From an uncultured Desulfurococcaceae archaeon (GTDB taxonomy: Archaea > Thermoproteota > Thermoprotei_A > Sulfolobales > Desulfurococcaceae), in assembly GCA_964531225.1 (NCBI GenBank), contig CAZHDB010000005.1:7350-71349 (forward strand): DNA of 64,000 nt, given 5' to 3'. The notes under the pieces were generated by a model. That model was not told the origin of the DNA and searched no databases. It saw only the letters and a program-made list of their open reading frames with translations. Shown piece by piece: positions 42,036-60,881 of the stretch. Both the position numbers and the translations under genes were made by a program. How positions within the stretch are numbered: the first letter of the stretch is position 1; each line of letters opens with the position of its first letter.

Positions 42036-42422
42036 TTGGCTTCGATAGAGATAGTAATTGATCTTGGTAAATACAAATATATAGATCTACCATTGGATAA
42101 AGCCATAGAATTTGTTGATAAGGCTATCGAAATATATGGTGAGACGTTAGATCTTAGTGAGACAAGTAGGTATGTAAAGAATTTTGATGAATTCTATGGA
42201 TACATGAGGAGAAAATTTAAGGATTTTATAGCACCTCCTAAATCATCTAGGGAAGTAGTTCTTGGTAAAACCTTTATCCACAAGGTTAAATTGTATGTTC
42301 ATGGTTCTAATGAGAAAAGAGTATTGCTAGTAGTTGATCGACGAGTTCCTCTAGATATTCTAAAGAAAATACTTAATGATATTGGCTATGATAATGTAAA
42401 GGTTGAAAAGAGCCTATTTTGA
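42036..42422 (+). CDS. Hypothetical protein
   Basis: 128-aa ORF with a TTG start and no motif. Confidence 0.35.
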   Translation: MASIEIVIDLGKYKYIDLPLDKAIEFVDKAIEIYGETLDLSETSRYVKNFDEFYGYMRRKFKDFIAPPKSSREVVLGKTFIHKVKLYVHGSNEKRVLLVVDRRVPLDILKKILNDIGYDNVKVEKSLF

Positions 42423-42755
42423 TTTTTTACTAGCCTTACTTTTCTTGCTTTTGCTACTCTTTTTAGCACTTTTTCTAGATTTTTTACCTTTTTTAGATGA
42501 TTTCTTTGATTTGGTCTTCTTTTTAGCCTTTTTCTTTGCCTCAGCCAACTCCTTTTTTATTTTTATTCTCGCAGTCCTCCTTCTTGTCATAATCTTTGCT
42601 AGTTCATCAATGGGTATTGCTCCCTCAAGAAACCTATACCAGAGCTCGGTTTTTACAATAAACTCGTTGAAATCTATAAGGGAGATCTCTTTGGCTTTTT
42701 TCTCAGCTTCAATATATTCTTCTGGAATAATTGCTTCTTCATATTCTTCGGCCAA
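42414..42755 (-). CDS. Rpo13-like protein (crenarchaeal RNA polymerase subunit candidate) with Lys/Ser-rich tail
   Basis: Acidic N-terminus. The core ISLIDFNEFIVKTELWYRFLEGAIPIDELAKIM resembles, from memory, the Sulfolobus Rpo13 helix-turn-helix. The roughly 45-aa tail is KKKAKKKTKSKKSSKK... Confidence 0.5.
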   Translation of the reverse strand: MAEEYEEAIIPEEYIEAEKKAKEISLIDFNEFIVKTELWYRFLEGAIPIDELAKIMTRRRTARIKIKKELAEAKKKAKKKTKSKKSSKKGKKSRKSAKKSSKSKKSKASKKSK

Positions 42756-44919: not shown

Positions 44920-47802
44920 ATGAATAGTAGAGTGGATAGTATGGATACAAAGCCCACCATAGACGTTAGAGAAGTATTTAGAGACGAATGTGTAGCTGAT
45001 TGTCTATCTAGCATAGGCTACAAAAAGATCTCTACCTTACAGTATAGGGTTTTTAAGAAAGTATTAATGGGATATACAGTCATAGTTATAGCACCTACAG
45101 GGATCGGCAAGACTGAAGCTGCAGTATTTCCCGTATTCTATAATATTAGTAGAAAGAGGATTAAGCCCATTGGAGCCATCTATGTTACTCCATTAAGAGC
45201 ACTTAATAGAGACATGGAGTATAGATTAAAGAAAATAGCCCAGTGTTTCGGTTTATCCGTGGCATTAAGACATGGCGATACGCCCCAGTCTTTAAGAAGA
45301 AAAATTAGAGAAAATCCTCCACACTTACTCATTACAACACCGGAGACTTTTCAATATATTCTTGCCGATAGTAGATTTAGAGAATATCTAGTAAATGTAA
45401 GATACGTAGTTATAGATGAATATAGGGAAATGATTACAAGTAAAAGAGGTATCGAATTATTATCTGCTATAAATATTCTTGAGAGGATAATTGGTAAAAG
45501 AATTATAAAGATAGGGTTAACAGCTACTCTAAGGAGAGTATATGAAGCATTATCTCTAATGGATAATTTATTATACTCCGATATTGTCGAGGCAAGTGTA
45601 GGTAAAGGAATGGAACTCTCTATAGAGACCCTCAGCGAAGAATATACTTCTCTTGACTATGAAGTTGATCCTGGCTTTTATAGTCGTTTATCTAGAGTTA
45701 AGGAATTAATTAATAGGTATAAATATGTCCTAGTCTTTGTTAATACAAGGGATCTTGCAGAAAGGATTGGCTGGGGCTTATCTTGTCTATTTGGCTTTAA
45801 AGATAAGGTAATGGTTCATCATGGAAGTTTGTCTAGACAACACAGGCTTAGAGCTGAGAGATTATTTAGAGATAGGAAGATTAATGCCCTAGTCGCAACA
45901 TCTAGCCTTGAACTGGGTATTGATATAGGTCATGTAGAGTATGTCGTGCAATACATGTCCCCAAGACAGGCTGTAAGACTTATTCAGAGAATTGGAAGAA
46001 GCATCCATAGAATCGAAGGTTTGCCTAGGGGGTCAATAATTACTTTGGGAAACTTCTTTGACGTACTCGAGTCAATAGTTATTGGCAGAAGAGCTCTCCT
46101 AGGTCAACTCGAGGATGAAGATATTCCTCAAAAACCGCTTGATGTACTGGCTCATCAAGTAGTTCTAAGGATTCTGGTAGAACCTGGCATTAAATATGAT
46201 GATTTATTTTTAGAATTTCATACTTCCAGAGTATTTAATGGACTGAGTGAAGAAGAGTTTAAACAAGTAGTTGACTACCTCGTGCTATCCCGTATTGTTA
46301 GGATTAGAGATAATAGACTTTATCCTAGCTATAGAGCAAAGATCTATTTCTATCGTACAACAATGATTCCAGATACAAGAAGTATAGCTGTTATCGATGT
46401 GAGCACTGGTAGGAAAATTGGTGTATTGAATGAGGAGTTCATAATACTAAATCTCGAAGAAAACTCAATACTTGTACTGGGTGGTGGTTCATGGAGAGTC
46501 ATAGGATTTGATCAGGATGAGGGCAAGCTCTATGTAGAGCCAGTTGAGGAAAAAACCCAGATCATTATACCAAGATGGGAAGGCGAAAGCATTCCTGTCG
46601 AGTATAAGGTTGCCCGAGAAATGGGTGCTTTTGTTAGACTAGCCATTGAGAGAGATCTGGATTACGCAATTAATAGGCTTGGCTACCATAATTTAAAGAT
46701 CTCCAAGGAATCCACGAAGATCATAGATAATTTACTTAATTCCATGTCATATACCGATAAAGTCTTACCTAGTGATCGTAGTATGGTTATCGAAATTAAT
46801 TCTGAGAATAAATACATCATATTATATGGGTTCTTTGGTTCAAAGGTATCTAATACGCTTAAGGAGATAATTCTTGCTTTAACTAGAAAACACATATATG
46901 CAAACGTATCGGCGTACGCTACACCATATTATATTATTGTATCATTCGAGAATTATAGGCCCAAGATCGATGATGTAAACGAAATTATTTATAGATTAAA
47001 AGCTCTAGGCAGTAATTTTAAGCTCTTCGAGAAATATGTCTCAAAGATTATAAAGGAAAGCAAAACCTTCTTATGGAGGATATTCTTCGTTGGACAGAGA
47101 TTCGGAGCCATAGATATTAGGAAGAAAGAAAAGCTCTCCAAGAGCATTCTCAAGGCCTTAGCTGATACAGTTATTGGAGTAGAAGCCTATAGAGAGACCT
47201 TGCTTAGGGATTACGATCTTATAAATACTTATCATTTATTACGAAGGTTATATATGGGGACATTGAAGGTCTATGTGTTTGTAGATCGAGAGCATGTTTA
47301 TCCATTATTTAAAGAAGCTATAAATAGGATACCTGGTTCAATAGAATTAAACGTAGTCGATCTCGAGACGTATAAACGTCGATTACTGAAGAAAAAAATC
47401 TCACTTATATGCATGATCTGTAGCTATAAATGGAGCTTAAGAGTAGAGGATGTGATTAAAGAGCATCATATAGAATGTCCTAAATGCGGCTCCAGATACG
47501 TAGCTACAGTAAAAGGTGATGGAGATAAGGAGCAGAGAATAGTGAGAAGAGTTCTTAACAAGAAGAAGCTTAGACATGACGAAAAGCAAATTTACAAAGA
47601 TCTTCAGAGACGAGGTTTACTTGTAATGGACTTTGGTCCCAAAGCTGTACTTATACTTGCGTCGCGTGGCGTTGGTTTTACTGAAGCAGTTAGAATAATA
47701 AATAAGTATAGAGGAGATGAAAAGGAATTAATTAAGTTACTTTATGAAGCTGAGAAGAAGTTCATACGCATTAAGAAGTATTTAGACAAACCTAGGGTAT
47801 AA
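44920..47802 (+). CDS. Lhr-like large superfamily 2 helicase with C-terminal zinc ribbon
   Basis: Motif I APTGIGKTEAA, DEYREM, HHGSLSRQHR and SSLELGIDIG. C-terminal CMICSY...CPKCGS. 960 aa. Confidence 0.75.
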   Translation: MNSRVDSMDTKPTIDVREVFRDECVADCLSSIGYKKISTLQYRVFKKVLMGYTVIVIAPTGIGKTEAAVFPVFYNISRKRIKPIGAIYVTPLRALNRDMEYRLKKIAQCFGLSVALRHGDTPQSLRRKIRENPPHLLITTPETFQYILADSRFREYLVNVRYVVIDEYREMITSKRGIELLSAINILERIIGKRIIKIGLTATLRRVYEALSLMDNLLYSDIVEASVGKGMELSIETLSEEYTSLDYEVDPGFYSRLSRVKELINRYKYVLVFVNTRDLAERIGWGLSCLFGFKDKVMVHHGSLSRQHRLRAERLFRDRKINALVATSSLELGIDIGHVEYVVQYMSPRQAVRLIQRIGRSIHRIEGLPRGSIITLGNFFDVLESIVIGRRALLGQLEDEDIPQKPLDVLAHQVVLRILVEPGIKYDDLFLEFHTSRVFNGLSEEEFKQVVDYLVLSRIVRIRDNRLYPSYRAKIYFYRTTMIPDTRSIAVIDVSTGRKIGVLNEEFIILNLEENSILVLGGGSWRVIGFDQDEGKLYVEPVEEKTQIIIPRWEGESIPVEYKVAREMGAFVRLAIERDLDYAINRLGYHNLKISKESTKIIDNLLNSMSYTDKVLPSDRSMVIEINSENKYIILYGFFGSKVSNTLKEIILALTRKHIYANVSAYATPYYIIVSFENYRPKIDDVNEIIYRLKALGSNFKLFEKYVSKIIKESKTFLWRIFFVGQRFGAIDIRKKEKLSKSILKALADTVIGVEAYRETLLRDYDLINTYHLLRRLYMGTLKVYVFVDREHVYPLFKEAINRIPGSIELNVVDLETYKRRLLKKKISLICMICSYKWSLRVEDVIKEHHIECPKCGSRYVATVKGDGDKEQRIVRRVLNKKKLRHDEKQIYKDLQRRGLLVMDFGPKAVLILASRGVGFTEAVRIINKYRGDEKELIKLLYEAEKKFIRIKKYLDKPRV

Positions 47803-49756
47803 GACCTAGTGCTCTAAACGATTCAATCACTTCTTCTCGTCTATATTTAGTTGATCTTTTCCATGCTTTCGCGTTACCAGTAATTAATGGTACAAGAATT
47901 TTTTCAACAAGAACATCGGCTAACGGGCAGACTTCTAGACATAGCCTACAGCCACTACATGGTATCTTTGGCAATGGGCCTTGGCTAGTTAGCCTAATTA
48001 CATTCATTGGGCACCATATAACGCAGCTGATGCATCTTGCACAGCCGTGTATCCTATATATTATTTTTAGTACATCGATGAGATCCTCTATACCCTTTTC
48101 TTCATGTATTCTATATTTAACTGTGTTCTTATCGATAATGACTTCCGCTTTGCTGCTAATTATTGACCAGCTAAGTGTGTCTTTATTTCTGGATATAGTT
48201 AAGTGCTTTAGCATTCTTATATTAGTTGAAAATTGTTGCTGAGCAGTATCTGGTACAAGATCTTTATTGAATACTAGATATTTCCAGTTATTAGCCTCCT
48301 TATGTTCTATAGGCGTTAAGTTAATTCTGCTATTGAGTAATCTAAGCCTATATTCTTTGATCCAGTCAATTTTATAACTAGGTATTTTTATGGCAAGTCT
48401 TTGCTTTGCAACCGCTGGAGTTAACCAACGCCATAAACCATATTTTATCCATTCCTGTGGCTGACTAAGTCTCTTTCTCCATTGTTCAAGTACATCGATC
48501 CATTTCTGCCATAGGTTAGGATATGTCCTTTTAACTTCATTGAACTCTGCCAAAGTACTAGATGGGCACATATAGCATCCAAGTCTCTCGAAACCTAGAT
48601 CGTATAGTTTATTATAGGGTAATTTGTGTTCGAATATATATAGCCATATATGTAACTGACTCCATTCTTGTATAGGCGTTATACTCAATAGGTGGGGTAT
48701 CCATCTATTTCTCCAAACCCTTGGGCTCTTAGCTCGATCAATAGACTCATAAGCTCTTTGACCAACAATATTTAGTGCCCCGCTAGGCCACTTATGCCTT
48801 GCAATACGTGCTAATGGAACGAGTTTAACGATTTTACAGCACCATCTATAATCCTTGCCTGGAGGACCAAAGATCTCTACTGCATCCCAAAAAGCATTTC
48901 CAGCACTGGCAACTACTTTCTCTAAGCCATATCTATCGGCAATAGAATCTACATTAGATACGGTATCTGGAAGCTCTAAACCAGTATCATTAAATAGTAG
49001 TTTAACGTCTCCCAATGTCTCTAAAGTTAGATGGAGTGCTGTAAGACTATCCTTTCCTCCGGAATATGACACAACAACTTCTTTTCCTACTTTTTCAGAC
49101 ATAGAGTATAGAAAGGCCTTTGCTCTTGATTCGAAATAGTACAAGCCGTACTTATTATGTTTTAAGACATCGTGTAGATTGGCATTACGTTCACTAGTCT
49201 CCCTAGGTCTATGAATATATTTAAAAACCTTGGTAATGACAACTGTTCCATCAATATTTTCAGCTAATCCTCTAACCTTACCTTTGCAATCTACTACTAC
49301 GACTTGTCTACTACTTGAAGAATAGTTTTCTCTAATAATCCTCTTCTCACGTATAAAACCATCATATGTTACGTAGTCTACCAGGTTTTCTTCATAAGCA
49401 ATTAATGCACCAGTAGAACTAAGTCTAAATCTCCATCCTCCTCTAAATGGATCATAGAATAACTGGCCAATGACATTACCTGAACTTATAATTTCCCACA
49501 TTTGATCCCAGTGGGGAACTTTATTTAATAGAATAAACTTGTTATGGATAAATCTATTATATATAGCATCATCATTAAATTCGTATCTAATGGCCATAAG
49601 AAGCTTTTCATAATCCTTTATAAAACCAGGCCTAGCGTCCCCAGGATCAGTCATCCTTAATTTAAATACATTATCTTCATTGCCAGGCTCGGGCTTAATA
49701 AGCGGAACATTATATATGGGATCCCAGTAAATTGTTGCTCTAACAGGCCATGACAC
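47792..49756 (-). CDS. PAPS-reductase-family PP-loop protein with N-terminal extension and C-terminal 4Fe-4S ferredoxin-like domain
   Basis: PP-loop VVSYSGGKDSLTALHL. C-terminal Cys clusters CARCISCVIWCP and CSGCRLCLEVCP. 654 aa. Confidence 0.65.
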   Translation of the reverse strand: MSWPVRATIYWDPIYNVPLIKPEPGNEDNVFKLRMTDPGDARPGFIKDYEKLLMAIRYEFNDDAIYNRFIHNKFILLNKVPHWDQMWEIISSGNVIGQLFYDPFRGGWRFRLSSTGALIAYEENLVDYVTYDGFIREKRIIRENYSSSSRQVVVVDCKGKVRGLAENIDGTVVITKVFKYIHRPRETSERNANLHDVLKHNKYGLYYFESRAKAFLYSMSEKVGKEVVVSYSGGKDSLTALHLTLETLGDVKLLFNDTGLELPDTVSNVDSIADRYGLEKVVASAGNAFWDAVEIFGPPGKDYRWCCKIVKLVPLARIARHKWPSGALNIVGQRAYESIDRAKSPRVWRNRWIPHLLSITPIQEWSQLHIWLYIFEHKLPYNKLYDLGFERLGCYMCPSSTLAEFNEVKRTYPNLWQKWIDVLEQWRKRLSQPQEWIKYGLWRWLTPAVAKQRLAIKIPSYKIDWIKEYRLRLLNSRINLTPIEHKEANNWKYLVFNKDLVPDTAQQQFSTNIRMLKHLTISRNKDTLSWSIISSKAEVIIDKNTVKYRIHEEKGIEDLIDVLKIIYRIHGCARCISCVIWCPMNVIRLTSQGPLPKIPCSGCRLCLEVCPLADVLVEKILVPLITGNAKAWKRSTKYRREEVIESFRALGLIP

Positions 49757-49966: not shown

Positions 49967-52900
49967 GTGTCACATATGAATAGAATTATATACTCTGTAC
50001 TACTTGCTATACTACTCACACTAAACCTAACAGCTGTCGCAACGGCATCACCAACATTTGCACCAGCACAAGCTCCAGGAGTAACTGCAGATATTGAGGT
50101 ATTATCACCATTAAACATAACCGATCCACTGTTAATAGGTAAAGACATATCAATATACTTACCTGGATGCTGTTTATTAGCAGTAGTTGATGTAAAGTCC
50201 CTAGAAGATCAAGGTGTCGACATAGGTTTAGTTGATGTACTGTTTACACCAGATGCAAACTGGTGGGGTGCAGAAGTAGTTAAGTATATTGACTTAAACA
50301 CAACAACTGATGGATGGATAAACAACCCTGAAACAGGAGTTAACTACGCTATTATCAGAAGCTCTACAGATCCAAACATTGTATTACTAGCAATAGATCT
50401 AAGTACAATAGACTTATCTAATGTCGTTGTTCACAGAGAGGCCTTTGGAGACATAGTAGTTATGAACTTGTATGGTATACCTCTATGGCTTAGAGTAAGA
50501 GACTATAACCCGCCATCGCCACCAGATAGTGCTTTAAGTGTAAATAGATTCGCCGTTATACAGCCTCCAGTAATCGATTGGGATGAATATATAACAGTTG
50601 AATACTTCATTGGTAACACAGAAGCAGACAAGGCAAAATATGGTACAAAGGTTAATATAACAATTAGATTACCTGACGAAATCAAGTACTTACTTAACAT
50701 AACTGGCGGCGCACCCGAATTAACATTCGAGAATGTTACTGTATTCAATGTAACAATGTTTAACCTAGACAATCCTGCAGATAGAGACCTGCTTTATAGC
50801 AATCTATTCCTAGTGCCGCAGGACAATGATTATCTAGAATTAGTGGATTGGGACATTTCTGCAGATGGTACTGTATTGAACATAACAGGCTACGTAAGAG
50901 ACTTCGCGCCTCTAGCAGTTCACGAAGATGCATCATCTGAGCCTAAGGCGTTCTATGGATTTGAGGTCTACTTAGAGTTTAACCGCACTGCCGATGTAGG
51001 TTATGGATTAAATCTATCAGAACTACCACCATGCCCTAATGTAGTTGATAATGATACGATTAGCTTCGTATTTAGTACTACAGGCTCAACATCAACAGTA
51101 TATGTTGAGGTATGGACATCATTAGAAGTAGTAGGCAATTATACCGATGTAGCATTTGATCCCTCTGATCTTAATCCCGGAGATGTTGTAAGGTTCAAGC
51201 TGCACAACCTACCAGTTCCCTATAATGATACGCTGTATCAAGTAGTATTTACGACATCATATACAACAATTGTATCAACAACCTTTAGCTACGTTGGAAC
51301 AGAATCAACACCTGCTGAAGGTATAGTAGTGTATGATGTGACATTACCTGATGGTGAATGGGGTGGATTAACAGCTTATGTAACATTCGTATTTAGGAGA
51401 GTAGGCTATGAGATACATGTTAGTGAGCACCCATCATGCTATCCTGTAACTGTTGTTGTAAAGCCTTATGCTGACATATTTGTATTACTCAATGATCCTT
51501 CATACATAGTTGCTCAGGACGGTGTTATTTATAGACAATTCGTACACTGGAGTCAATCAGACTATACGGCAGCACCAGGCGATTATATACTTGTTAAAGG
51601 CTATGGCTTTATAACTGAAGGAGGACTAGACGTTCTCATTAACGAGACAATAACGCTTAAGAAACTTCTAGAAAGGAACAGTTCATCAGATCCGGGTCTT
51701 GAACCTGGTAGGGCAATTCTTGTAGTAAAGGTTAATGTAACTGAAAACGGAGTAATATGTCCATGTAGAGATAATAGGTTAACTGTTGTAGGCACACTCT
51801 ATAATAGCACTAACAGATACACTACTGATGAGAACCTAACAATAGACTTTAGACCGGATCTATGGAAGATACTTGTCAATCCAGATCTACTATATGATCC
51901 TGTAGCACAGACAGTCTATGTAACACAGGAGAGACTATCATTATTCGATGTATACTATGACCTAGTTGATGATCCAGTGGCTCCGGGTGGCGATAAATTT
52001 GTTGAGGATACATTAGATGAGGAGTTCAGACTAGAAGTAATAGGTGTTAATGCGTCGAGCGTCGAGCTATTGTTTGACAATACCTATCCACACTTCCTTA
52101 ACTTCACATGGAATAATGTTAGTCTACAGTGTGGCTATGCGTATGTGGACTATACTGGTGCTACAATACCATTCTATCCAATGGGTACCTACACCTTAGT
52201 GGTACTTAATGGCACTACTGTCCTAGTGCCTGAGGCCATTAATGGTTCAGACGTCTTTGAAGTACATCCGAACCTGGATATCGACGTATTACCAGATGAC
52301 GATACGTCTGGCAGGAGATGCTGTAACGTAACATTCAATGTTGTTGGCGGACTACCTGATGACGTATTAACATTCCATGGTAATGCAGTGATAGAGATTA
52401 CTACTGACGAGTTCGGAGGACCAACTGTATGGAGAACCGAGGCAATATCTGTAGATGTAGCTACTAATACTTATGGTATTGGCAACACTACAATATATGG
52501 AACAGTATTCTACGACTCAACAGAGCTCCAGAATGATGTAAAGTCCTACATGGATGGACACTCATTCTCTGGTGAAGGAGATATATCGTTTACAATAGAT
52601 TATAGTGGTGAGCTAGACTACTTCACTAATGACACACTAGTAATATGGTATGTCTACTGGGGTACTAATACTGAAAGAGAGTTTACACTTGAAGTAACTG
52701 GTACAGTACATTACTTTGAAGTTACTGACGAGATTGATTGGACAGTCTCTGTAAAAGTACCTAGGACAAGAGTTGTAGTATCTGTACCCGAGACAGTTTT
52801 ACCTGGAGACAATATTACTATACAGATATTTGTACATGAGACTGCTGTATCTCATGACCAAGTAACTCCTGAGAAACTATGGGAGTTAATGTATCCATAC

Positions 52901-54535
52901 TGGATTAGTGTAAGATTGGTAGACGTATCAGCATCAACGAGCGGTAGTTGGGTCGCATTATATGGTGGATGGTTAAGATTTGACTCTGGTACGACTGAAG
53001 TAGAATTACCTAATGGCAAAGTTGCAAAGCTTGTACGCGTATTAGAGGATGTTGATGGCGACGGCGTCGATGAGGTTGTATTCCTTGTCGTCATACCTGC
53101 ACCTATAACAACATATGATGTGACACTAAGAGTTGATGTAAACATCACATTAGCTTATGAGAACACGGGTACCCCGACATTCCTTGACCTAGTAGACGAT
53201 GAATGTACATTTGAAGCAAACTATACTGGCGCTAGATTGTGGGCTACTCACTACACTCATGTCCTATATGGAGGCGATCATCATCTTACAACAGTACTTG
53301 GACTATTAGAGGCTAAGCTAGACTATATTAAGGATGATACAGTCTATATCAGAGGAAAAGTCGATGACGTATGGACGTTTATAACCGTTGATCTAATGGA
53401 CTTCCTAGAGGCTATGAACAACTCTATAATAACAAAGATTGATGGCAGTACTGCCACTATATTAACCACGCTTGGAGAGATCAATGTAAGCTTAACAGAC
53501 CTAATGACAACACTGGCTGGCGAAATAGAATTTAAGATCGACGAGTCCACAGCAACAATTATTGCAAAGCTTGAGGATGTCAATGCGACATTATACCTCA
53601 AGATCGATGAGAGTACTGACTTCTTAGCATCATTAGTCGGCGATCTATTTACCAGGCTTGACGAATTAGAGGCCAACGTAGTCTATACAATACTTGCTGT
53701 AAACGAGTCGGTAGTAGGGCATATAGATGTCGTTGCTGACGACTTGAGATATGATATACTACTAAGAATCGATGAAGCGGAAGAAACACTAAGCGATCTA
53801 ATAACTGTCAAGGCCGATGAGATCGAATATCTCATTAATGAGGCAAACATAACGATAGTGGCCAAGATCGGTGAATCAACATTGACAATAACTGATGCAG
53901 TTGATAGTGCTAAGGCCGACCTCGAAGTCTATATTGATGGACAGACTGCTACCATTAGAAGCGATATAGCCGCTGTAAAGACTGATACTGAGAGTATAAT
54001 CGACTTAGTAAATGCTCTACAGACAAGTGTCAGCGACTTATCTGTAAAGCTAGTACAGGTAAATGACACACTATATGCATTAGTATTAAGTGTTGGAGAT
54101 GATGTAAAGGCAACAATCATTGGTAAGGCAGACGACATATTAGGATTCCTCAACGAGTTTAAGACAGCTACTGAGACAAGCTTTAGCAATGTATTATCAG
54201 CTATTGATGAATTAGGTACTGATGTTGAGGCTGCTAAGGCAGAAGTACTAGCCAACTTATCGAGTGTATACAGTGATCTATCAAGCAAGCTTGATGACTT
54301 AAGCTCAGCAATATCGGATGCCAGTACAAGCATAGAAGACAAAATTACAAGCGCTAAGAATGAGTTAAGCACCAAGGTAGAAACACTAGCTGGAGACTTA
54401 AAGAGTACTGTTGAAGAGAAGACTGATGCTGTAAACAGCAATGTAACGACTTTCAGTCTAACACTATTGATACTTGTAATAGTCTTAATAGGACTAGTAG
54501 GCTACAGCTTAATAGTTGCCAGAAGAGCTAGGTAA
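49967..54535 (+). CDS. Tetrabrachion-like S-layer glycoprotein (signal peptide, large sequon-rich ectodomain, long coiled-coil stalk, C-terminal TM anchor)
   Basis: The likely start is the ATG at 49976 (MNRIIYSVLLAILLTLNLTAVATA), behind AGGTG. There are many NxS/T sequons. The last roughly 420 aa are coiled coil, ending in TFSLTLLILVIVLIGLVGYSLIVARRAR. 1522 aa. Confidence 0.75.
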   Translation: MSHMNRIIYSVLLAILLTLNLTAVATASPTFAPAQAPGVTADIEVLSPLNITDPLLIGKDISIYLPGCCLLAVVDVKSLEDQGVDIGLVDVLFTPDANWWGAEVVKYIDLNTTTDGWINNPETGVNYAIIRSSTDPNIVLLAIDLSTIDLSNVVVHREAFGDIVVMNLYGIPLWLRVRDYNPPSPPDSALSVNRFAVIQPPVIDWDEYITVEYFIGNTEADKAKYGTKVNITIRLPDEIKYLLNITGGAPELTFENVTVFNVTMFNLDNPADRDLLYSNLFLVPQDNDYLELVDWDISADGTVLNITGYVRDFAPLAVHEDASSEPKAFYGFEVYLEFNRTADVGYGLNLSELPPCPNVVDNDTISFVFSTTGSTSTVYVEVWTSLEVVGNYTDVAFDPSDLNPGDVVRFKLHNLPVPYNDTLYQVVFTTSYTTIVSTTFSYVGTESTPAEGIVVYDVTLPDGEWGGLTAYVTFVFRRVGYEIHVSEHPSCYPVTVVVKPYADIFVLLNDPSYIVAQDGVIYRQFVHWSQSDYTAAPGDYILVKGYGFITEGGLDVLINETITLKKLLERNSSSDPGLEPGRAILVVKVNVTENGVICPCRDNRLTVVGTLYNSTNRYTTDENLTIDFRPDLWKILVNPDLLYDPVAQTVYVTQERLSLFDVYYDLVDDPVAPGGDKFVEDTLDEEFRLEVIGVNASSVELLFDNTYPHFLNFTWNNVSLQCGYAYVDYTGATIPFYPMGTYTLVVLNGTTVLVPEAINGSDVFEVHPNLDIDVLPDDDTSGRRCCNVTFNVVGGLPDDVLTFHGNAVIEITTDEFGGPTVWRTEAISVDVATNTYGIGNTTIYGTVFYDSTELQNDVKSYMDGHSFSGEGDISFTIDYSGELDYFTNDTLVIWYVYWGTNTEREFTLEVTGTVHYFEVTDEIDWTVSVKVPRTRVVVSVPETVLPGDNITIQIFVHETAVSHDQVTPEKLWELMYPYWISVRLVDVSASTSGSWVALYGGWLRFDSGTTEVELPNGKVAKLVRVLEDVDGDGVDEVVFLVVIPAPITTYDVTLRVDVNITLAYENTGTPTFLDLVDDECTFEANYTGARLWATHYTHVLYGGDHHLTTVLGLLEAKLDYIKDDTVYIRGKVDDVWTFITVDLMDFLEAMNNSIITKIDGSTATILTTLGEINVSLTDLMTTLAGEIEFKIDESTATIIAKLEDVNATLYLKIDESTDFLASLVGDLFTRLDELEANVVYTILAVNESVVGHIDVVADDLRYDILLRIDEAEETLSDLITVKADEIEYLINEANITIVAKIGESTLTITDAVDSAKADLEVYIDGQTATIRSDIAAVKTDTESIIDLVNALQTSVSDLSVKLVQVNDTLYALVLSVGDDVKATIIGKADDILGFLNEFKTATETSFSNVLSAIDELGTDVEAAKAEVLANLSSVYSDLSSKLDDLSSAISDASTSIEDKITSAKNELSTKVETLAGDLKSTVEEKTDAVNSNVTTFSLTLLILVIVLIGLVGYSLIVARRAR
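53438..54163 (+). repeat. 22 consecutive in-register 11-residue (undecad) repeats within the stalk
   Basis: IDGSTATILTT/LGEINVSLTDL/MTTLAGEIEFK/IDESTATIIAK/LEDVNATLYLK/IDESTDFLASL/... /DDILGFLNEFK, with hydrophobic residues recurring at positions 1, 4-5 and 8. Confidence 0.75.
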
Positions 54536-54542
54536 ATGCTAT

Positions 54543-54571: not shown

Positions 54572-54685
54572 ATAAATACTTCACTTTTAATGTTTCAACA
54601 TATTTCTTTACTCGAGACATTATTGATTATAACTAGTTTTATACAGAACCATTTTTAAGGATTTTAAGAAGGTCTAGGGAGGTAG

Positions 54686-55123
54686 TTGAGATCATTAACA
54701 CAGTACCTATCAATGGCTATTATATTGTCAATAATGGTATCCGTATCTGCATTATTGACTACATACATAAACAATGTATATGAGTCCGTGTTAAGGGTTA
54801 AAGGAAATCTCTTCGATAATGCAATTGTTTTAAATAAATTAGAATTAGAAGGAAATAAGATTGTTATAATAGACTTTAAAAGAGAAGCGATAATTTATGA
54901 CATTATTATAATTTATCCCTTAAACAATTATAGTTACTCCATACTTAGGTTCATAGGCAACGGGACTAAACAGGTACATTATTATAATGTAACAATATTT
55001 TATCAAAATATAACTTGTCTTCATGATAAACTCGTTGGCATAAGAAACTCATTAATAATTATAAGAGTGCCCATAGGACTACGTATAAAAATATATTCTA
55101 TGGAGGACATTCATTATGCTTAG
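54686..55123 (+). CDS. Hypothetical N-terminally anchored/pilin-like protein, first gene of the Ced-like operon
   Basis: TTG start behind GGGAGGT. N-terminus MRS-LTQYLSMAIILSIMVSVSALL, followed by a beta-rich domain. Overlaps the next gene by 8 nt. Confidence 0.5.
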   Translation: MRSLTQYLSMAIILSIMVSVSALLTTYINNVYESVLRVKGNLFDNAIVLNKLELEGNKIVIIDFKREAIIYDIIIIYPLNNYSYSILRFIGNGTKQVHYYNVTIFYQNITCLHDKLVGIRNSLIIIRVPIGLRIKIYSMEDIHYA

Positions 55124-57224
55124 ATCCATGTCAGCATATCCTTTAGCGATCATGTTAACAATATCACTAATTACAATAACAGTAGTGACAATAAACTCTA
55201 TGGCAAAGATATCAACACTAACAACTAGTATTAATGAAAAAGAGAAAACGACACCAATAACCTATTACTTGTATAATGACTCTTTATACATAATACCTAT
55301 TAAGAGGTACAGTGGCAGTATAAGAATAATTGCAATAGATGAGCACGGGTATATTGATGTACTAGAACTAAATAGATCTTTATTAAAGAATAAAATAGCA
55401 TATGGTCCTATACCATTATATTATAAATATCTAATTATTCAAAATGAAGATCATGTAATATTGGATGTATTAGGAGAATTGGATTCTAAAAGCATCAATA
55501 TGGAGTTCCTCCATCCACTACCTCCATCATTATATGTTCATCCGGCCCTCTCTGTAGTAGATTACATAGATCAACATAGTGGGATAAACAATTATTATGA
55601 AGTAGTTCCAAAAATTAATGATATTATTGAAAACATACTCTATCCTAATTTAACTTATAAAATAGATAATGAATTATATAAGCCTACGGCTATTAATCAG
55701 AGTATACAAATAAAGACAAATAGCAGTAAATACTACAGTCCGAACGATACTTTTCTAATCAATATAACAAATATATTAATGCACGGTACTCAATACTACG
55801 GAGGATATCTCGTTAGAATCGAAATTAACTCAACAAAACCTTTAGAGTTTGTAGAGGGATTAAGCGATAACTATACTCATCATAACCAAGTTTATCCTCG
55901 CAATACAGAGACTATTGAAGTAGTTGAAACACATACTCTATTAAATAAAACTGTTGATTCAGGTTATATAACTGATATCTTAATAAATGCTACACACGAA
56001 ATACTGAATGCATCAATTATAGGATTATGGTCTGGAAGAGTTGTAGCAGCATTCTATGAAATAACATACAATTTAACACTCACCAATGGTTCATCAAGTA
56101 CTTCCTATATTGTTAGAACAAATACAACAAGTATCAACATAAATAATTACACTATGATTATAAATAAGATGTTTAATAATATTAGCTATTCTTCGTCGAA
56201 TAGTTCTATTAAAGCAATATTGATAATTAGATACAATATTGTACCCATAGAGATTGGTAGTGAGCCTTTGTTACTTGATCTCTATTCTCATATACACGGT
56301 AACATTCAAAATAGATCGTTACGAATTATAAGACATAATACACTGCAATTAATCACAGATGATATAGAGAATTTTATAGTTGATCGAAACAGTATATTAA
56401 TCTATTCAACTATGTATTCATTAAAGAATAATATTTCATATAGGATACTGACAAACAATTCAATCCTTGATCGTGGTAATAATCTCCACATTTTACTTAA
56501 TTTTTATGGTAGAGCAAACATCTCCATAACCGAATACGCTTTGCCTGACATAGTAATTAATGATAACGGGATTATATTAACTAATATTGTTAATAATGCA
56601 ACTATATCGGGCAATATGTCGGGTATTTTATGGTTTAATACCAATGAAAAACCATTACATATAAGATATAAAGTCCCATCGATAGTCAAGATCGGTATTG
56701 TACAATTATATATAAGTACGTATTCTGTTTTACTTAGGGATTACTACGAAAATAAAACGTATATATACAATGGCACATTTTATTTAGTAAATGGCTCCAA
56801 AATTAGATTTATACAAAATGTAATCATATTACGTAATATAACCTATGCACAGCCCTATATCTATTTTCCCTGTACTATAAATCTAACTATGTATATTGGA
56901 TATACGGATGGGCAAATGGAGATAATAAATACAAGTTATGGCAAGCCTTTATACAGATTGAGGAATATGCTTATCAGAAATATAACAGTTAAATTAAATC
57001 ATTATGGATCCCGAATATATGGCTCCTTAAATACTCCATTTCTATTTATTAATTTCAGAAATACTACTGATTACGCCTTTATTGAAAAAGATATGCTTAG
57101 GCATATCAATATTTTTGGGAATATTATTGTTATTTATAGGACAAGGATTTATGGTTATGAAGTATCTCTATTACTTTCGCCAACCCCTCCCTTTATTAAA
57201 TATCCCGAACCTATACTAGGGTAA
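55116..57224 (+). CDS. Large Asn-rich, sequon-rich extracellular protein with pilin-like N-terminus
   Basis: N-terminus MLRS-MSAYPLAIMLTISLITITVV. 702 aa with more than 25 NxS/T sequons and no further TM. The next gene starts 5 nt downstream. Confidence 0.5.
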   Translation: MLRSMSAYPLAIMLTISLITITVVTINSMAKISTLTTSINEKEKTTPITYYLYNDSLYIIPIKRYSGSIRIIAIDEHGYIDVLELNRSLLKNKIAYGPIPLYYKYLIIQNEDHVILDVLGELDSKSINMEFLHPLPPSLYVHPALSVVDYIDQHSGINNYYEVVPKINDIIENILYPNLTYKIDNELYKPTAINQSIQIKTNSSKYYSPNDTFLINITNILMHGTQYYGGYLVRIEINSTKPLEFVEGLSDNYTHHNQVYPRNTETIEVVETHTLLNKTVDSGYITDILINATHEILNASIIGLWSGRVVAAFYEITYNLTLTNGSSSTSYIVRTNTTSININNYTMIINKMFNNISYSSSNSSIKAILIIRYNIVPIEIGSEPLLLDLYSHIHGNIQNRSLRIIRHNTLQLITDDIENFIVDRNSILIYSTMYSLKNNISYRILTNNSILDRGNNLHILLNFYGRANISITEYALPDIVINDNGIILTNIVNNATISGNMSGILWFNTNEKPLHIRYKVPSIVKIGIVQLYISTYSVLLRDYYENKTYIYNGTFYLVNGSKIRFIQNVIILRNITYAQPYIYFPCTINLTMYIGYTDGQMEIINTSYGKPLYRLRNMLIRNITVKLNHYGSRIYGSLNTPFLFINFRNTTDYAFIEKDMLRHINIFGNIIVIYRTRIYGYEVSLLLSPTPPFIKYPEPILG

Positions 57225-57229
57225 TCGGT

Positions 57230-57496
57230 ATGACTGATATTATAGGGTTCATACAGGATCTCATCATAAATATAACGCTAGTAGCTTGGATAATGTTCTT
57301 ACTAACATGGGTTATTGGATGGGCTTTAAAGGGAGCACCAATACCTTTTCTAAGGATTAAGAGAACGGGTCAAAAATTTATAGAAGACGCAGTATGGGCA
57401 GCATTCTGGTTAGCAATGGGCACAACAGTATTTGCCTTAATAGCTTATATTGTTACACAGTTTCAGCAACCATTTCCAGAACCACCAACGATCTAG
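57230..57496 (+). CDS. Two-helix hairpin membrane protein, CedA1/VirB2-like pilin candidate
   Basis: 88 aa made of a hydrophobic helix, a basic loop (KGAPIPFLRIKRTGQK) and a second hydrophobic helix. Sits immediately upstream of the polytopic CedA-like gene. Confidence 0.55.
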   Translation: MTDIIGFIQDLIINITLVAWIMFLLTWVIGWALKGAPIPFLRIKRTGQKFIEDAVWAAFWLAMGTTVFALIAYIVTQFQQPFPEPPTI

Positions 57497-57521
57497 TATT
57501 TTCTGGAGGGTCTAGTGTGTT

Positions 57522-58925
57522 ATGGAGTATGAATTACTTGTTACAGCATTTTACTTATCAGCTCTCTCCTATTACATAGGTACATTACTCTACATGCTAC
57601 CTATACCTTTCTACGGTGTAAAGAAATGGGCTCCCACACTCATGGTTGACGGCATATTCTCAGCTATATTGGTCTTTGCATACACTATACTACTATGGCT
57701 GATAGAATATTTTGGAGAATTACTAGGTAGTGACTGGACTTCATTCTATACATGGCTTGGAGTGAAAACAGGTATTGTTGCTACATTAATGACTGTATTA
57801 AGAGTAATTGCTGCAAGCGCATCCTTTACTGGTGCAAAAGTTATTGTTAGTAGCGTTATATCGCCACTAATATCATCGCTAACATATGTTACAATGACAT
57901 TATTAACAATAGCTATGATAGCAGTAATTATAACAAGTTATGGAGCTAGACTACTTACGCTAGGAATATTATTACATGCGGTACCATTTAGACTAACTAG
58001 AGCCAGCGGAGCCATGATCATTTCAATAATAATGGTTTTCTCTATAGGCTTACCAATAATGCCTTTATATGTAGAGCTATTATCTCAACCTATTGGAGTA
58101 CCGGACTTAATAGTAGTTGACTATGGCATAGCATATGTAAAGATACATGTTAATGACAGTATTGGAAACCCTATATCATTTCCTGTATTTAAAGCCTTTA
58201 CACATGATAATATGACTTTAGCTGTCTATTATGGTGGAGAAGATGGTATAATAGATGCAACACGCCAGGATAGCGGGTTACCTGGTTCTAGAAGCTATAA
58301 TGTAGATATAGATATTGCTGGAATACACTTATTTAAAACAATAGATCCTGTTAAAGAATACATGAATGGAAATAATACGTTTTATAAGCTACATATATCA
58401 ATTAATAATACACTTCAACTTGAACCATTACATTTGATCTATTTAGAAGGAATTAGTATACAAAATTATTCATTAGGCTCCGGATACTACGAACTTGTTG
58501 TCTATAGTTATGAAAGTAATTACTTCTATGTAATAACTTGTCAGCAAGATACTGTAATAGTGTATATTGATGGTGAAATAGAGAGTCCGTTGGAAACAAT
58601 AAGTTACACATGGTATAACATTGATATGGTTAGTCTTAAATATCAATTATCATCAGGGCAACATACTATCGCTATCGAAATTTCGTATAATGAGATCCCT
58701 GTTCCTGAAGTCGATGAAGTCTATTACTTAAGAGATATAGCTAATATATCGTTGCTTAGTCCCTTAACGATAATTAACCCTATAGTATATTTAATATTTA
58801 ATTTATTCATAGCTCCGCTATCTTATATTGTAGTCTTAGTGTCATCATCATATGCTTTAGCTAAACTGATTGGTGGTACTACTCCAAGCCTATTTCGTGC
58901 ACTAACTGTAGGAGGAAGGCTTTAA
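57522..58925 (+). CDS. Polytopic membrane protein, CedA/VirB6-like candidate, with inserted extracellular beta-rich domain
   Basis: About six TM helices in the first 190 aa, a roughly 240-aa soluble region, then a C-terminal TM pair. Confidence 0.5.
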   Translation: MEYELLVTAFYLSALSYYIGTLLYMLPIPFYGVKKWAPTLMVDGIFSAILVFAYTILLWLIEYFGELLGSDWTSFYTWLGVKTGIVATLMTVLRVIAASASFTGAKVIVSSVISPLISSLTYVTMTLLTIAMIAVIITSYGARLLTLGILLHAVPFRLTRASGAMIISIIMVFSIGLPIMPLYVELLSQPIGVPDLIVVDYGIAYVKIHVNDSIGNPISFPVFKAFTHDNMTLAVYYGGEDGIIDATRQDSGLPGSRSYNVDIDIAGIHLFKTIDPVKEYMNGNNTFYKLHISINNTLQLEPLHLIYLEGISIQNYSLGSGYYELVVYSYESNYFYVITCQQDTVIVYIDGEIESPLETISYTWYNIDMVSLKYQLSSGQHTIAIEISYNEIPVPEVDEVYYLRDIANISLLSPLTIINPIVYLIFNLFIAPLSYIVVLVSSSYALAKLIGGTTPSLFRALTVGGRL

Positions 58926-59089
58926 TGAATATTGAATGGATTATATTATTAATGATGATATTCGTTATCGCGATTTCTTTAATGACTATAGAGCCTCCAA
59001 GATCTTTTATGATCAATGTATTATTTGTGTCAATAATATTATTTTTAAAACTGTTAATAAAGAAGGTGAATAAAGAACATGAAATTTAG
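58925..59089 (+). CDS. 54-aa two-TM protein (CedA2-like candidate), not in ORF track
   Basis: The ATG shares its A with the upstream TAA (TAATG). Product is MNIEWIILLMMIFVIAISLMTIEPPRSFMINVLFVSIILFLKLLIKKVNKEHEI. Overlaps the ATPase start by 11 nt. Confidence 0.55.
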   Translation: MNIEWIILLMMIFVIAISLMTIEPPRSFMINVLFVSIILFLKLLIKKVNKEHEI

Positions 59090-60746
59090 TGAGATCTTGG
59101 AAGCATTAATTGGCTATAAAGTTTCTTTCGAGATTAAAGATGGAATATTATTTATTATAAAAGGTAAGAAAGTTCATGGAATAAAATATTTAGTATCTAA
59201 TGAAGTTGACTATGGATTTAGAGATCTTGATCCCAGTAGGCTTTATAGAATCGTTGAAACATATACAAGTCTTTATTCAAGAATGCCTGTTGGAACAGAG
59301 ATAAAAATTGTAAAGCTCAATATAGACAGGAGAAAATTATTGAAACGTATTGAAAATGAAATGCTAAACATTAGAGCAGCTATTGATATAGTAAAAGAGC
59401 CTCATACTATTAAGAAACAAGAACTTAGACTCAGGCTTCTTGAAAGACTTTATGAGAAGATAATCTCATCAAAGGATATTGAAAGAATAATTCTTATAAT
59501 AAAGATTAGAAGTGAAGGAACAAGTATAGCTACTGTAAAAGAATCATTAGATACACTTTCTGAAATGATTATTAGCTTCTTTAAACTTGGCCTCGGGATA
59601 ATTCTTAGAAGTGTAAGCGATAGTGAAGTGAGAGAAATCATTAGATACGAGCTAGGAATAGTAGAGAAACCTAAAGGGAAACCGATAATTATTGAGACCC
59701 CCAAGCTTGCATCACTACAACCTATACCTTTTAACAAGAAACCCGGCATAGAGAAGATGGAAGGAATTTATATAGGTAATGATCTAGAAAGCGGGTGGCC
59801 AATTATTATTGACAAAGATGCATTAAGTAAGCATATAGCTGTAATTGGACCTACAGGCAAGGGTAAAACAGTAACTCTAGCCACTATAATGGAGTCAATG
59901 GTTGCTTTAGGAGATTCAAATATCATAGCCATTGATTTTAAGGGAGATCTGGCATCATTAATTAATAAAAATCTAATAAGAGTTCTCGAACCAAATAGCT
60001 TACCCTTAAATTTACTTATTAAGCCTGATTATATACCTCGTATTGACTGGGCCCTCATAGTTAATGATCTATTAATTAATGTAATGAAGATCGATCCAAA
60101 GCGTTCATCTGCTATATTAAGTGCTATTGTTGAGGGCAAGATAGATAGTTTAAATGCCGAGAAAATATTATTGAATAGAGATCTTGCTATATTAGCTAAT
60201 GTTATTGAGCTAGTTACTTCAGCTCCTAACTATTCAAAACTATATGATCTATTAGTTAAAGGTAATATATTATTTAGTCTTAGAGGTTATGGAACTACGT
60301 TTCAAAATATGTATGGAGGATTAGTATTGTCGATAATATCATACCTTGTCTCTATAGGTAGAATTCAGAGATCACCTGTAATAATTGATGAGGCATGGAG
60401 GATCATGAGAATAAAGTCTTTTAGAACTCTAGTAAAGGAGGGTAGAAGTAAAGGTGTTGGGGTAATCTATGCTGTTCAGAATATCGAAGATATACCGGAG
60501 GATATACTTGATAACACAAACACAATCATAGCTTTCGGGTCATATAGCGATAATTATGTTGACAAGATTAGGAGAGTACTTGGATTAAATAGGCATTATC
60601 TTGAGAAAATGAAACATTTATCAGTAGGTGAAGCAATCATAGTTACATCAATTGATCCGCATCCTCTAGTAATCAGAATAGAGCCGCCGAGTAAATTGGA
60701 GGAGAAGATTAAAGCTTCTAAGGAAATAAGATATATTATAGAATGA
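59079..60746 (+). CDS. VirB4/HerA-type ATPase, CedB-like candidate
   Basis: Walker A GPTGKGKTV, Walker B VIIDEAWRIM and GRSKGVGVIYAVQN. SD AAGGTGA lies upstream. 555 aa. Confidence 0.7.
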   Translation: MKFSEILEALIGYKVSFEIKDGILFIIKGKKVHGIKYLVSNEVDYGFRDLDPSRLYRIVETYTSLYSRMPVGTEIKIVKLNIDRRKLLKRIENEMLNIRAAIDIVKEPHTIKKQELRLRLLERLYEKIISSKDIERIILIIKIRSEGTSIATVKESLDTLSEMIISFFKLGLGIILRSVSDSEVREIIRYELGIVEKPKGKPIIIETPKLASLQPIPFNKKPGIEKMEGIYIGNDLESGWPIIIDKDALSKHIAVIGPTGKGKTVTLATIMESMVALGDSNIIAIDFKGDLASLINKNLIRVLEPNSLPLNLLIKPDYIPRIDWALIVNDLLINVMKIDPKRSSAILSAIVEGKIDSLNAEKILLNRDLAILANVIELVTSAPNYSKLYDLLVKGNILFSLRGYGTTFQNMYGGLVLSIISYLVSIGRIQRSPVIIDEAWRIMRIKSFRTLVKEGRSKGVGVIYAVQNIEDIPEDILDNTNTIIAFGSYSDNYVDKIRRVLGLNRHYLEKMKHLSVGEAIIVTSIDPHPLVIRIEPPSKLEEKIKASKEIRYIIE

Positions 60747-60808
60747 TGACTGGTGGGCTTTACAGACCCACCTAAAATATTGGGTATGAAGAGTGCGGTC
60801 GTATCTGA
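60743..60808 (+). ncRNA. C/D box sRNA candidate overlapping the stop codon of the ATPase gene
   Basis: ATGATGA-13 nt-CAGA-19 nt (an internal ACCCA/TGGGT stem that shares its A with the CAGA box)-ATGAAGA-12 nt(GTGCGGTCGTAT)-CTGA-TGTTTTT. Alternatively, GGTGGG (60752-57)/CCCACC (60767-72) could be a terminator-like hairpin. Confidence 0.4.
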
Positions 60809-60881
60809 TGTTTTTAGTGGAAAACACTAATTAGCTACGAATATATAATGGGTTGGATATGTTGTTAAGATGGTGTAGGAG

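Follow-up and report, generated by a model that had tools for sequence, protein, structure and literature searches.

Organization of the ced locus

We analyzed a 64,000-nucleotide stretch of DNA from an uncultured Desulfurococcaceae archaeon (assembly GCA_964531225.1, contig CAZHDB010000005.1; hereafter called the window), which contains four co-directional, tightly packed genes related to the crenarchaeal Ced DNA transfer system. A first-pass annotation had recognized these genes as cedA1, cedA, cedA2, and cedB. We recovered the four plus-strand open reading frames (ORFs) of 88, 467, 54, and 555 aa at the coordinates it gave, together with the gene overlaps and Walker motifs it described (Table 1). 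The cedA stop codon and the start codon of the small ORF share 1 nt (TAATG at 58923-58927), and the small ORF overlaps cedB by 11 nt, with the cedB ATG beginning at 59079 and the small-ORF TAG lying at 59087-59089. Hydropathy profiles also agreed with the architectures that had been proposed, namely, a helix/basic loop/helix protein of 88 aa, a polytopic protein of 467 aa, and a 54-aa protein with two transmembrane (TM) helices. The order of the first three genes equals that of saci_0569, saci_0568, and saci_0567 in the Ced system of Sulfolobus acidocaldarius (PMC11823120). We consider it very probable that the four genes are the chromosomal Ced DNA exchange system of this archaeon. The Ced locus here is an ordinary copy of a known crenarchaeal machine consisting of a pilin, a membrane channel, a small membrane protein, and a motor ATPase.

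The locus was compared with contigs carrying diverse homologs and with 80 cedA1-anchored loci from species-representative genomes (numbered with the prefix L where they are named individually). About 60 of 83 loci, from many genera, had the gene order cedA1, cedA, an optional small ORF, and cedB. Because the same four-gene order was found in dozens of independent genomes, the clustering is far beyond what would be expected by chance.

Table 1. Features of the ced locus and of its surroundings in the 64-kb window
Feature	Coordinates	Strand	Description
cedA1	57230..57496	+	VirB2-like Ced pilin, 88 aa
CedA1 C-terminal tail	57460..57493	+	Pro-rich, QPFPEPPTI, residues 77-88
cedA	57522..58925	+	polytopic membrane protein, 467 aa
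CedA insert	58089..58751	+	residues ~190-410; tandem beta-sandwich, acidic, sequon-rich, predicted extracellular
Small two-TM ORF, CedA2 position	58925..59089	+	54 aa
cedB	59079..60746	+	VirB4/HerA-clade ATPase, 555 aa
CedB Walker A	59847..59870	+	GPTGKGKT, residues 257-264
CedB Walker B	60381..60398	+	IIDEAW, residues 435-440
DDRE-like hexamer	57173..57178	+	ACTTTC (ANTTTC class), 57 nt upstream of cedA1 ATG, putative
TATA-like box	57192..57202	+	TTTATTAAATA, ~28-38 nt upstream of cedA1 start codon
Probable transcription-unit end	60752..60815	+	GGTGGG...CCCACC inverted repeat (60752-60772) and T5 run (60811-60815)
CedD-like membrane ATPase	42872..44845	-	657 aa; N-terminal TM-like segments within residues 1-262, VirB4/HerA-type ATPase domain
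ORF downstream of CedD-like gene	42414..42755	-	113 aa
Lhr-type DEXH helicase	44920..47802	+	
PAPS-reductase-like/ferredoxin-domain gene	47792..49756	-	
Tetrabrachion-like candidate	49967..54535	+	1522 aa, secreted
145-aa ORF	54686..55123	+	class III-signal-like N terminus
702-aa ORF	55116..57224	+	class III-signal-like N terminus
Topo VI-A	15830..17134		
RadA	23555..24526		
Reverse gyrase	30258..33938		
XPB	35918..37582		
PCNA	41183..41938		

The CedA1 pilin

The assignment of the 88-aa protein as the CedA1 pilin was borne out by two matches. It scored 123.6 bits against the NCBIfam CedA1 model NF041797, above the curated cutoff of 100, and it aligned over residues 2 to 74 with the Ced pilin of Aeropyrum pernix solved by cryo-electron microscopy (PDB 8DFU) with E=3.9e-25 and about 60% identity by eye. 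Hydropathy indicated two hydrophobic helices separated by a basic loop and no signal peptide, and an alignment of five orthologs contained 28 invariant columns. Ted-type pilins carry a signal peptide (PMC9905601); since the 8DFU alignment starts at residue 2, the window protein is instead an unprocessed, Ced-type pilin.

The Pro-rich C-terminal tail of CedA1 (consensus QPxPxPPT) is kept in the window and in three related sequences (all those aligned). The A. pernix pilin was compared up to residue 74 of 84, that is, short of the tail region. Judging by the geometry of the solved pilus, this tail probably decorates the pilus surface.

The CedB ATPase

The best NCBIfam family for the 555-aa protein was CedB (NF041017; 121 bits, E=5e-35), with residues 16 to 535 aligned to positions 60 to 587 of 590, i.e., over the full length of the model. 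The rival models that matched were CedD (47 bits), HerA models (31 to 44 bits, with partial coverage), and VirB4 (26 bits); no FtsK model appeared in the NCBIfam match list. The top Pfam matches were the DUF87/HerA central domain and HerA_C, and FtsK_SpoIIIE scored 25 bits. Hydropathy showed no TM segment in the window CedB. An AlphaFold model built with 40 homologs reached a pLDDT of 85.1, and its five best Foldseek matches in the PDB were all TrwK/VirB4 of the R388 system (E=5e-17 to 6e-15), with HerA of S. solfataricus close behind by a narrow margin (E=9e-15). The proposal that the ATPase belongs with VirB4/CedB rather than with HerA or FtsK therefore stands on the profile scores, since the CedB model far outscores HerA (121 versus 31 to 44 bits), and the hairpin pilin predicted beside it also holds.

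CedA and its predicted ectodomain

CedA (NF041796) was the best NCBIfam family for the 467-aa protein (140 bits, E=1e-40), followed by the paralog family CedE (E=7e-29) and a weak match to the CedA1 model. As for CedB, the best-scoring family agrees with the original assignment. None of the three membrane proteins matched a family in our copy of Pfam, which predates PF27251; precomputed labels show that this family, named “CedA1,” matches homologs of the window CedA. An identical protein (100%) is recorded publicly as a “hypothetical protein” of a Thermoprotei metagenome-assembled genome (MAG). A family-based CedA profile searched against the PDB matched the 8DFU pilin at residues 4 to 63 (E=0.0018). 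By sequence, the N-terminal hairpin of CedA is a paralog of CedA1, which repeats a published observation (PMC9905601).

The AlphaFold model of CedA (35 homologs, pLDDT 83.9) consists of helices at residues 2 to 187, comprising the CedA1-like hairpin and a helical bundle, and a C-terminal TM helix at residues 414 to 450. Hydropathy identified a non-hydrophobic stretch at about residues 189 to 410, and the model was all-beta at residues 204 to 390, with a pLDDT of about 90. Alignment with a 259-aa CedA from a Sulfolobaceae locus (L061) placed this insert between the last two TM helices. The first-pass annotation had described an extra domain of roughly 240 aa as a particular feature of this locus. 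The domain is real, at about 220 aa, and it is the standard form outside the Sulfolobaceae: CedA is 450 to 500 aa long in essentially all Desulfurococcaceae, Pyrodictiaceae, Acidilobaceae, and Ignisphaera loci. The short form was found only in L061, and L063 has an intermediate ORF of 326 aa.

Several properties suggest that the insert faces the outside of the cell. Its density of N-glycosylation sequons (2.7 per 100 aa) is similar to that of the S-layer protein (2.4) and higher than that of cytoplasmic controls (0.0 to 0.5), and the same difference was found across homologs (2.37 in the CedA insert versus 0.26 in CedB homologs). The insert is also strongly acidic (28 D+E versus 9 K+R), and the K/R-rich loops of CedA, among them the one with the invariant motif PFRLTR at residue 155, are found on the opposite face. 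Because of its sequon density, its acidic composition, and the position of these loops, we conclude that the insert is probably extracellular.

A phmmer search of the insert against 1.84 billion representatives retrieved 12 relatives, 10 of which are of CedA length and carry the domain in the same position. The other two align with the second subdomain only (phmmer E=1.8e-4), where Pfam assigns CE2_N, the N-terminal beta-sandwich of carbohydrate esterases. When CE2_N was compared with the second beta-subdomain by hhalign, the probability was 66% over 49 columns. We treat a resemblance of this subdomain to CE2_N or to a carbohydrate-binding module (CBM) as a lead only, with moderate support from these two comparisons. 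Foldseek searches with the whole CedA model returned generic immunoglobulin-, transthyretin-, and CNA-B-pilin-like folds along with the S-layer protein SlaB; these beta-sandwich matches dominated and gave no functional clue for the insert.

The small two-TM protein and its possible role in attaching CedB to the membrane

Two-TM ORFs of 48 to 74 aa occupy the gap between cedA and cedB in 43 loci. Of three related public contigs, two have a gene call for the counterpart of the 54-aa ORF and one has none. The Desulfurococcaceae small ORFs form a coherent family: a hidden Markov model (HMM) searched against all ORFs of all loci retrieved members outside its training set at E<=5e-9. The next sequences in the ranking were a cedA-adjacent small ORF from L049 (E=0.006) and then the ORF in the CedA2 position of the Sulfolobaceae locus L061, which at E=0.17 is not significant but outranks all unrelated ORFs and shuffled sequences. 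No CedA2 match was found in an NCBIfam scan of the 54-aa protein. The identification of this protein as a CedA2 counterpart is thus tentative and relies on its position and two-TM architecture; homology at the sequence level could not be demonstrated. Codon differences between orthologs of the small ORF spare second positions (for example, 30/8/32 relative to L005), as expected for a hydrophobic coding sequence.

The presence of the small ORF was complementary to a TM helix on CedB. A small ORF together with a TM-less CedB was found in 34 loci, including the window and all of its Desulfurococcaceae relatives; a TM-anchored CedB without the small ORF was found in 19 loci, both features in 9, and neither in 0 (9/34/19/0; Fisher p=1.6e-9, uncorrected for phylogeny). 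This complementarity and the 11-nt overlap with cedB suggest that the small two-TM protein is a membrane tether that docks TM-less CedB to the CedA complex. Alternatively, by analogy with the minor-pilin role that has been proposed for CedA2 (PMC11823120), it might serve as a minor pilin.

Putative promoter and transcription unit

A DDRE-like (DNA damage-responsive element-like) hexamer and a TATA-like box precede cedA1, and both lie within the 3′ end of the 702-aa ORF upstream. The hexamer A[CG]TTTC was present at about -50 to -68 in 41 of the 80 cedA1 loci, which are non-identical, in comparison to 2.5% of random 61-nt windows, and it occurred mainly in Desulfurococcaceae and Pyrodictiaceae. 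A position weight matrix (PWM) trained without the window and its clade placed its best site on either strand of the 64-kb window at 57168-57187 (21.3 bits); the next-best site scored 14.7 bits. In the same PWM scan, neither the CedD-like gene nor the Lhr gene had a DDRE-like site upstream. In their extended form, the sites preceding cedA1 (for example, AATAGTTTCGG) resemble the DDRE consensus of Saccharolobus islandicus, AATAGTTTCRGWDTACTCWS, which is bound by Orc1-2 and needed for damage-induced expression of cedA1 (PMC6061795). The motif lies at a constant distance from cedA1 both where the 702-aa gene is the upstream neighbor and where the divergent PAPS-reductase-like gene is, and we therefore attribute the motif to cedA1. 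The window ORFs scanned included no Orc1-2-type regulator.

The TATA-like box lies at the same distance in the close relatives L002, L004, L006, and L007. A crude TATA regular expression at -42 to -24 matched 24 of 83 loci, a count that is low partly because start codons were called mechanically. From the position of the box, we infer a short-leader transcript that would begin just before cedA1. Shine-Dalgarno-like sequences (GGAGG or AGGAG) precede cedA and the small gene, and none precedes cedA1, in keeping with a short leader on the first gene and coupling of the genes after it. Transcription would end after cedB, where a gap of 135 nt before the next gene contains the inverted repeat and T5 run (Table 1). 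The four ced genes appear to have their own promoter, composed of the ACTTTC box and the TATA-like box. As in Sulfolobales, DNA damage probably induces them by way of a regulator of the Orc1-2 type.

Synteny and chromosomal setting

In Desulfurococcaceae and several other loci, cedB is directly followed by a PF02598 methyltransferase gene and the rpl3-rpl4-rpl23-rpl2 operon. Many of these loci have a PAPS-reductase-like gene, an Lhr helicase gene, and a DUF87/TraG-like membrane ATPase gene upstream. The synteny check that had been proposed thus came out in favor of the original reading, as both the ced gene order and the position beside rpl3 recur across Desulfurococcaceae and other genera. 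The rest of the window is core chromosome and encodes RadA, reverse gyrase, XPB, Topo VI-A, RtcB, aminoacyl-tRNA synthetases, and PCNA. Among 72,556 plasmids, CedA had no relative and CedB had only remote matches to the ATPase core. The same flanking genes are found across many genera, from which it follows that the ced locus is chromosomal and vertically conserved and does not lie on a mobile element.

The G+C content at window positions 54001-60000, which contain the pilin-like and ced genes, is 31 to 32%, whereas the flanking S-layer and ribosomal protein genes have 39 to 42%. Given the conserved synteny, this is more likely to reflect the composition of membrane protein genes than recent acquisition.

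Two other arrangements were seen among the loci compared. Nine MAG loci (L020, L023-L026, L028, L029, L033, and L034) encode cedA1 and a long cedA (451 to 471 aa) with no adjacent cedB, thereby combining a Desulfurococcales-type CedA with a split gene arrangement of the Sulfolobaceae type. Loci L030 and L031 are identical, mutually inverted 16-kb ced loci at the two ends of the 71.9-kb contig CAZCAU010000002.1; this is probably a palindromic assembly artifact and not a real duplication.

Neighboring genes

We also detected a 657-aa membrane ATPase gene 12 kb upstream of ced. The NCBIfam family that scored highest for its product was CedD (NF053655; E=1e-21), at 77 bits compared with a cutoff of 600 and with 61 bits for the VirB4-like model CD1110, which came next. 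The combination of a TM domain and an ATPase domain agrees with a CedD-type architecture. A homolog occupies the same upstream slot in most Desulfurococcaceae and in several Pyrodictiaceae loci. CedD was described in 2025 (PMC11868833, PMC11823120), and the 657-aa protein is probably the CedD partner of this system. By phmmer, the window has no further paralog of CedA/CedE or CedB; only the NCBIfam models revealed the CedD-like gene.

The CedD-like gene is directly followed by a 113-aa ORF whose N-terminal half is acidic and whose tail is basic and extremely rich in Lys and Ser. Weak homologs (19 to 36 bits) hold this position in about a dozen loci. The ORF has no family match; it could encode a DNA-binding partner of CedD. 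The Lhr-type helicase gene and the PAPS-reductase-like gene are convergent, with 3′ ends that overlap by 11 nt, and they are conserved between the CedD-like gene and cedA1 in many genera. Genes for other proteins of DNA transactions lie farther away (Table 1).

A three-gene cassette separates the PAPS-reductase-like gene from cedA1 in the window and in eight other loci. Its first gene encodes a 1522-aa secreted protein with a C-terminal coiled-coil stalk, a TM anchor, and a weak Pfam Tetrabrachion match, which looks like a tetrabrachion-like S-layer protein; homologs of 1322 to 2339 aa fill the same slot in a subset of loci. The other two genes are the 145-aa and 702-aa ORFs. The 702-aa protein contains 32 N-glycosylation sequons.

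Comparison with known systems

The window proteins belong to the same families as the Ced proteins of S. acidocaldarius and S. islandicus (CedA1 saci_0569, CedA saci_0568, CedA2 saci_0567, CedB saci_0748, CedD saci_0667). Like the window, they have the order cedA1-cedA-small two-TM gene, as does the Sulfolobaceae locus L061 (80 aa, 259 aa, and 56 aa, respectively). An ANTTTC-type DDRE lies upstream of cedA1, where the window has its putative one, and the second ATPase, CedD, has a probable counterpart in the window. The differences are that cedB lies elsewhere in Sulfolobaceae and within the cluster here, and that the 259-aa Sulfolobaceae CedA lacks the beta-rich ectodomain of about 220 aa. 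In addition, CedB is membrane bound in Sulfolobales (PMC11823120), whereas the window CedB has no TM segment and matches NF041017 only from position 60. In contrast to Sulfolobales Ced, no CedE paralog was found in the window by phmmer.

The A. pernix pilin CedA1 (APE_0220a, PDB 8DFU) has an unprocessed N terminus (PMC9905601), as does the window protein. Loci labeled Acidilobaceae share a long CedA and an adjacent cedB with the window. Unlike the window, loci of this type have no small two-TM gene and carry a TM helix on CedB, and most have no DDRE-like hexamer. Aeropyrum, which we take to belong to this Acidilobaceae-type grouping, has no locus among the 80 compared.

The Ted system of Thermoproteales (TedC/TedA/TedB, PDB 8DFT) likewise combines a pilin of the VirB2 class with a VirB6-like channel and a VirB4-like ATPase. 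Its pilin, TedC, is made with a Sec signal peptide that is cleaved off, and the TedC sequence shows no recognizable similarity to Ced components (PMC9905601), whereas the window proteins match Ced models directly. The likeness to bacterial type IV secretion systems (T4SSs) includes the Ced pilin family, which is VirB2-like according to the literature, and the ATPase, as the T4SS of R388 (TrwL/VirB2, TrwI/VirB6, TrwK/VirB4; PDB 7O41, 8RTD) provided the best structural match of the CedB model. Ced differs from bacterial T4SSs in being chromosomal, domesticated, and, as a family, an importer of DNA. No VirB3, VirB5, or VirB7-11 family and no relaxase family was found among the neighbors scanned in the window. 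HerA-NurA shares with CedB the ATPase superfamily, the DUF87/HerA_C core, and a strong structural match; it differs in that no NurA, Mre11, or Rad50 gene adjoins cedB, HerA models score below CedB, and cedB lies within a probable membrane protein operon.

Discussion

Several observations weigh against our interpretation or limit it. CedA1 is the only ced product that passes its NCBIfam equivalog cutoff; CedB, at 121 bits, falls below the cutoff of 700, and CedA, at 140 bits, falls below that of 330. We attribute both shortfalls to divergence and, for CedA, also to the insert; no rival family scores higher for either protein. The NF041796 model has 259 positions, equal to the length of the short CedA in L061, and therefore does not include the insert. 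We read the scores as a sign that NF041796 and NF041017 are tuned to Sulfolobales sequences. Neither VirB6 nor TrwI appeared in the CedA profile search against the PDB or among the top 50 Foldseek matches, which the beta domains dominate, and the published link between CedA and VirB6 was reported by HHpred only (PMC9905601). The similarity of the 54-aa protein to Sulfolobaceae CedA2 is non-significant. The statistics for the motif and for the small ORF and CedB TM helix treat related genomes as independent, and their P values are inflated. Finally, as only 5 nt separate cedA1 from the 702-aa gene, read-through cotranscription may occur, and inducibility by damage is not universal, because A. 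pernix makes Ced pili without UV induction (PMC9905601) and the hexamer is present in only one of eight loci labeled Acidilobaceae.

The last of these points bears on what the machine is used for. A genuine Ced-type machine might serve mainly in pilus adhesion, biofilm formation, or bidirectional or export transfer, and not in damage-induced import. The direction of transfer is not readable from sequence, the pili of A. pernix are constitutive, CedA1 and CedE also affect export in S. islandicus (PMC11868833), and a large ectodomain with a possible CBM-like module suggests surface interaction. On the other hand, the conserved DDRE-like box ties expression to the DNA damage regulon, the neighborhood is rich in repair genes (Lhr and PCNA near, RadA and XPB farther away), and the only functional data for the Ced family show import; we consider such an alternative main role improbable. 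We give somewhat more weight to a larger unit of six genes, in which the 145-aa and 702-aa ORFs would be cotranscribed with cedA1-cedB and contribute an Ups-like adhesion or contact function, yet this too is unlikely. These two ORFs overlap by 8 nt and end 5 nt before cedA1; the 145-aa ORF is preceded by 150 nt of AT-rich sequence, in which TATA-like boxes and a Shine-Dalgarno-like site are found; and in nine loci, their N termini read [KR][GAS]-[LVM][ST]xY followed by a hydrophobic helix, as in class III, type IV pilin-like signals. The sequon density of the 702-aa protein (4.6 per 100 aa) fits a surface location as well. However, the pair is found only where the tetrabrachion-like S-layer gene fills the slot and is absent from most Ced loci, so that its covariation is with the S-layer gene rather than with ced. 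A homolog search with the 702-aa protein gave only five clusters, no Pfam pilin family was matched (the sole hint was a subthreshold match to DUF7289, E=0.006), and the location of the putative DDRE and TATA promoter within the 3′ end of the 702-aa gene favors separate transcription of ced. Because of the covariation with the S-layer gene, the narrow distribution, and the lack of a pilin family match, we exclude both ORFs from the Ced unit.

Two further explanations question the identity of the system itself. The locus could belong to an integrated conjugative plasmid or element as its transfer module, and would then be a DNA-exporting T4SS and not a domesticated import system, as it encodes VirB2 and VirB4 homologs (and a VirB6 homolog, according to the literature), has a TraG/VirD4-like ATPase nearby, and lies in a region (54 to 60 kb) of lower G+C content than its flanks. 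The recurrence of this chromosomal slot in many genera, bounded by the PAPS-reductase-like gene on one side and the methyltransferase/rpl3 operon on the other, largely refutes this reading. The neighbors scanned are core housekeeping genes and include no integrase, relaxase, or plasmid replication gene. With these conserved flanks, a window of core chromosome, and, among plasmids, no relative of CedA and only remote ATPase-core matches of CedB, an integrated conjugative element is very unlikely. We consider it even less credible that the ATPase acts in repair as a HerA-type helicase, or as an FtsK-like translocase, and only happens to sit beside unrelated membrane proteins. The top Pfam matches and the strong Foldseek match to S. 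solfataricus HerA would fit such an enzyme, but the CedB model matches over its full length with a far higher score than the partial HerA matches, and the top five structural matches are VirB4. Moreover, NurA, Mre11, and Rad50 genes are not adjacent, the start codon overlaps the gene for the small membrane protein, and a neighboring gene encodes a bona fide Ced pilin. We therefore rejected the HerA/FtsK identity on the grounds of the best-scoring model and the best structural matches.

For the Ced system that we favor, the observed homology, architecture, synteny, and motif conservation lead us to propose a working model in which the direction of transfer, inducibility, the role of the tether, and the function of the ectodomain are the parts that we infer. 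By homology with characterized systems, CedA1 would be extracted from the membrane and polymerized into a VirB2-like, lipid-containing pilus, with CedA as a VirB6-like membrane platform or channel. The ectodomain of CedA would be displayed outside the cell as a glycosylatable tandem beta-sandwich of about 220 residues. CedB, as a hexameric ATPase of the VirB4/HerA clade, would power assembly, DNA translocation, or both, and the translationally coupled 54-aa protein would most likely dock CedB to the CedA complex or else act as a minor pilin. With the CedD-like membrane ATPase encoded 12 kb upstream, the motor would probably be complete.

The Ced machine itself is known, and the locus is a further Ced module that had been recognized correctly, not a new kind of system; it adds a previously unannotated Ced system in a Desulfurococcaceae MAG. 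We consider the by-products of the comparison, namely, the ectodomain, the attachment alternatives, and the range of the DDRE, to be more useful than the locus, and all of them are directly testable. In the literature searched, we did not find descriptions of the distribution of the ectodomain, of the complementarity between the small protein and the CedB TM helix, or of a cedA1 DDRE outside Sulfolobales.

The CedA of the Sulfolobaceae model organisms (259 aa) appears to be a reduced form, and the ectodomain of about 220 aa that most lineages possess is not accounted for in current Ced models. We speculate, tentatively and against the odds as we judge them, that the long-CedA ectodomain is a glycan- or S-layer-binding module, used for partner recognition or for bridging the S-layer gap where Ups pili are lacking, that was lost in Sulfolobaceae once Ups took over; in the same scenario, the DDRE would imply that control of import by the Orc1-2 regulon predates the Sulfolobales. 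The small two-TM protein and the N-terminal TM helix of CedB appear to be alternative means of attaching the motor, which would give CedA2, a protein as yet unexplained, a testable role. DDRE-like boxes of the Orc1-2 type upstream of cedA1 occur well outside the Sulfolobales, which addresses a question left open in the Discussion of PMC6061795.

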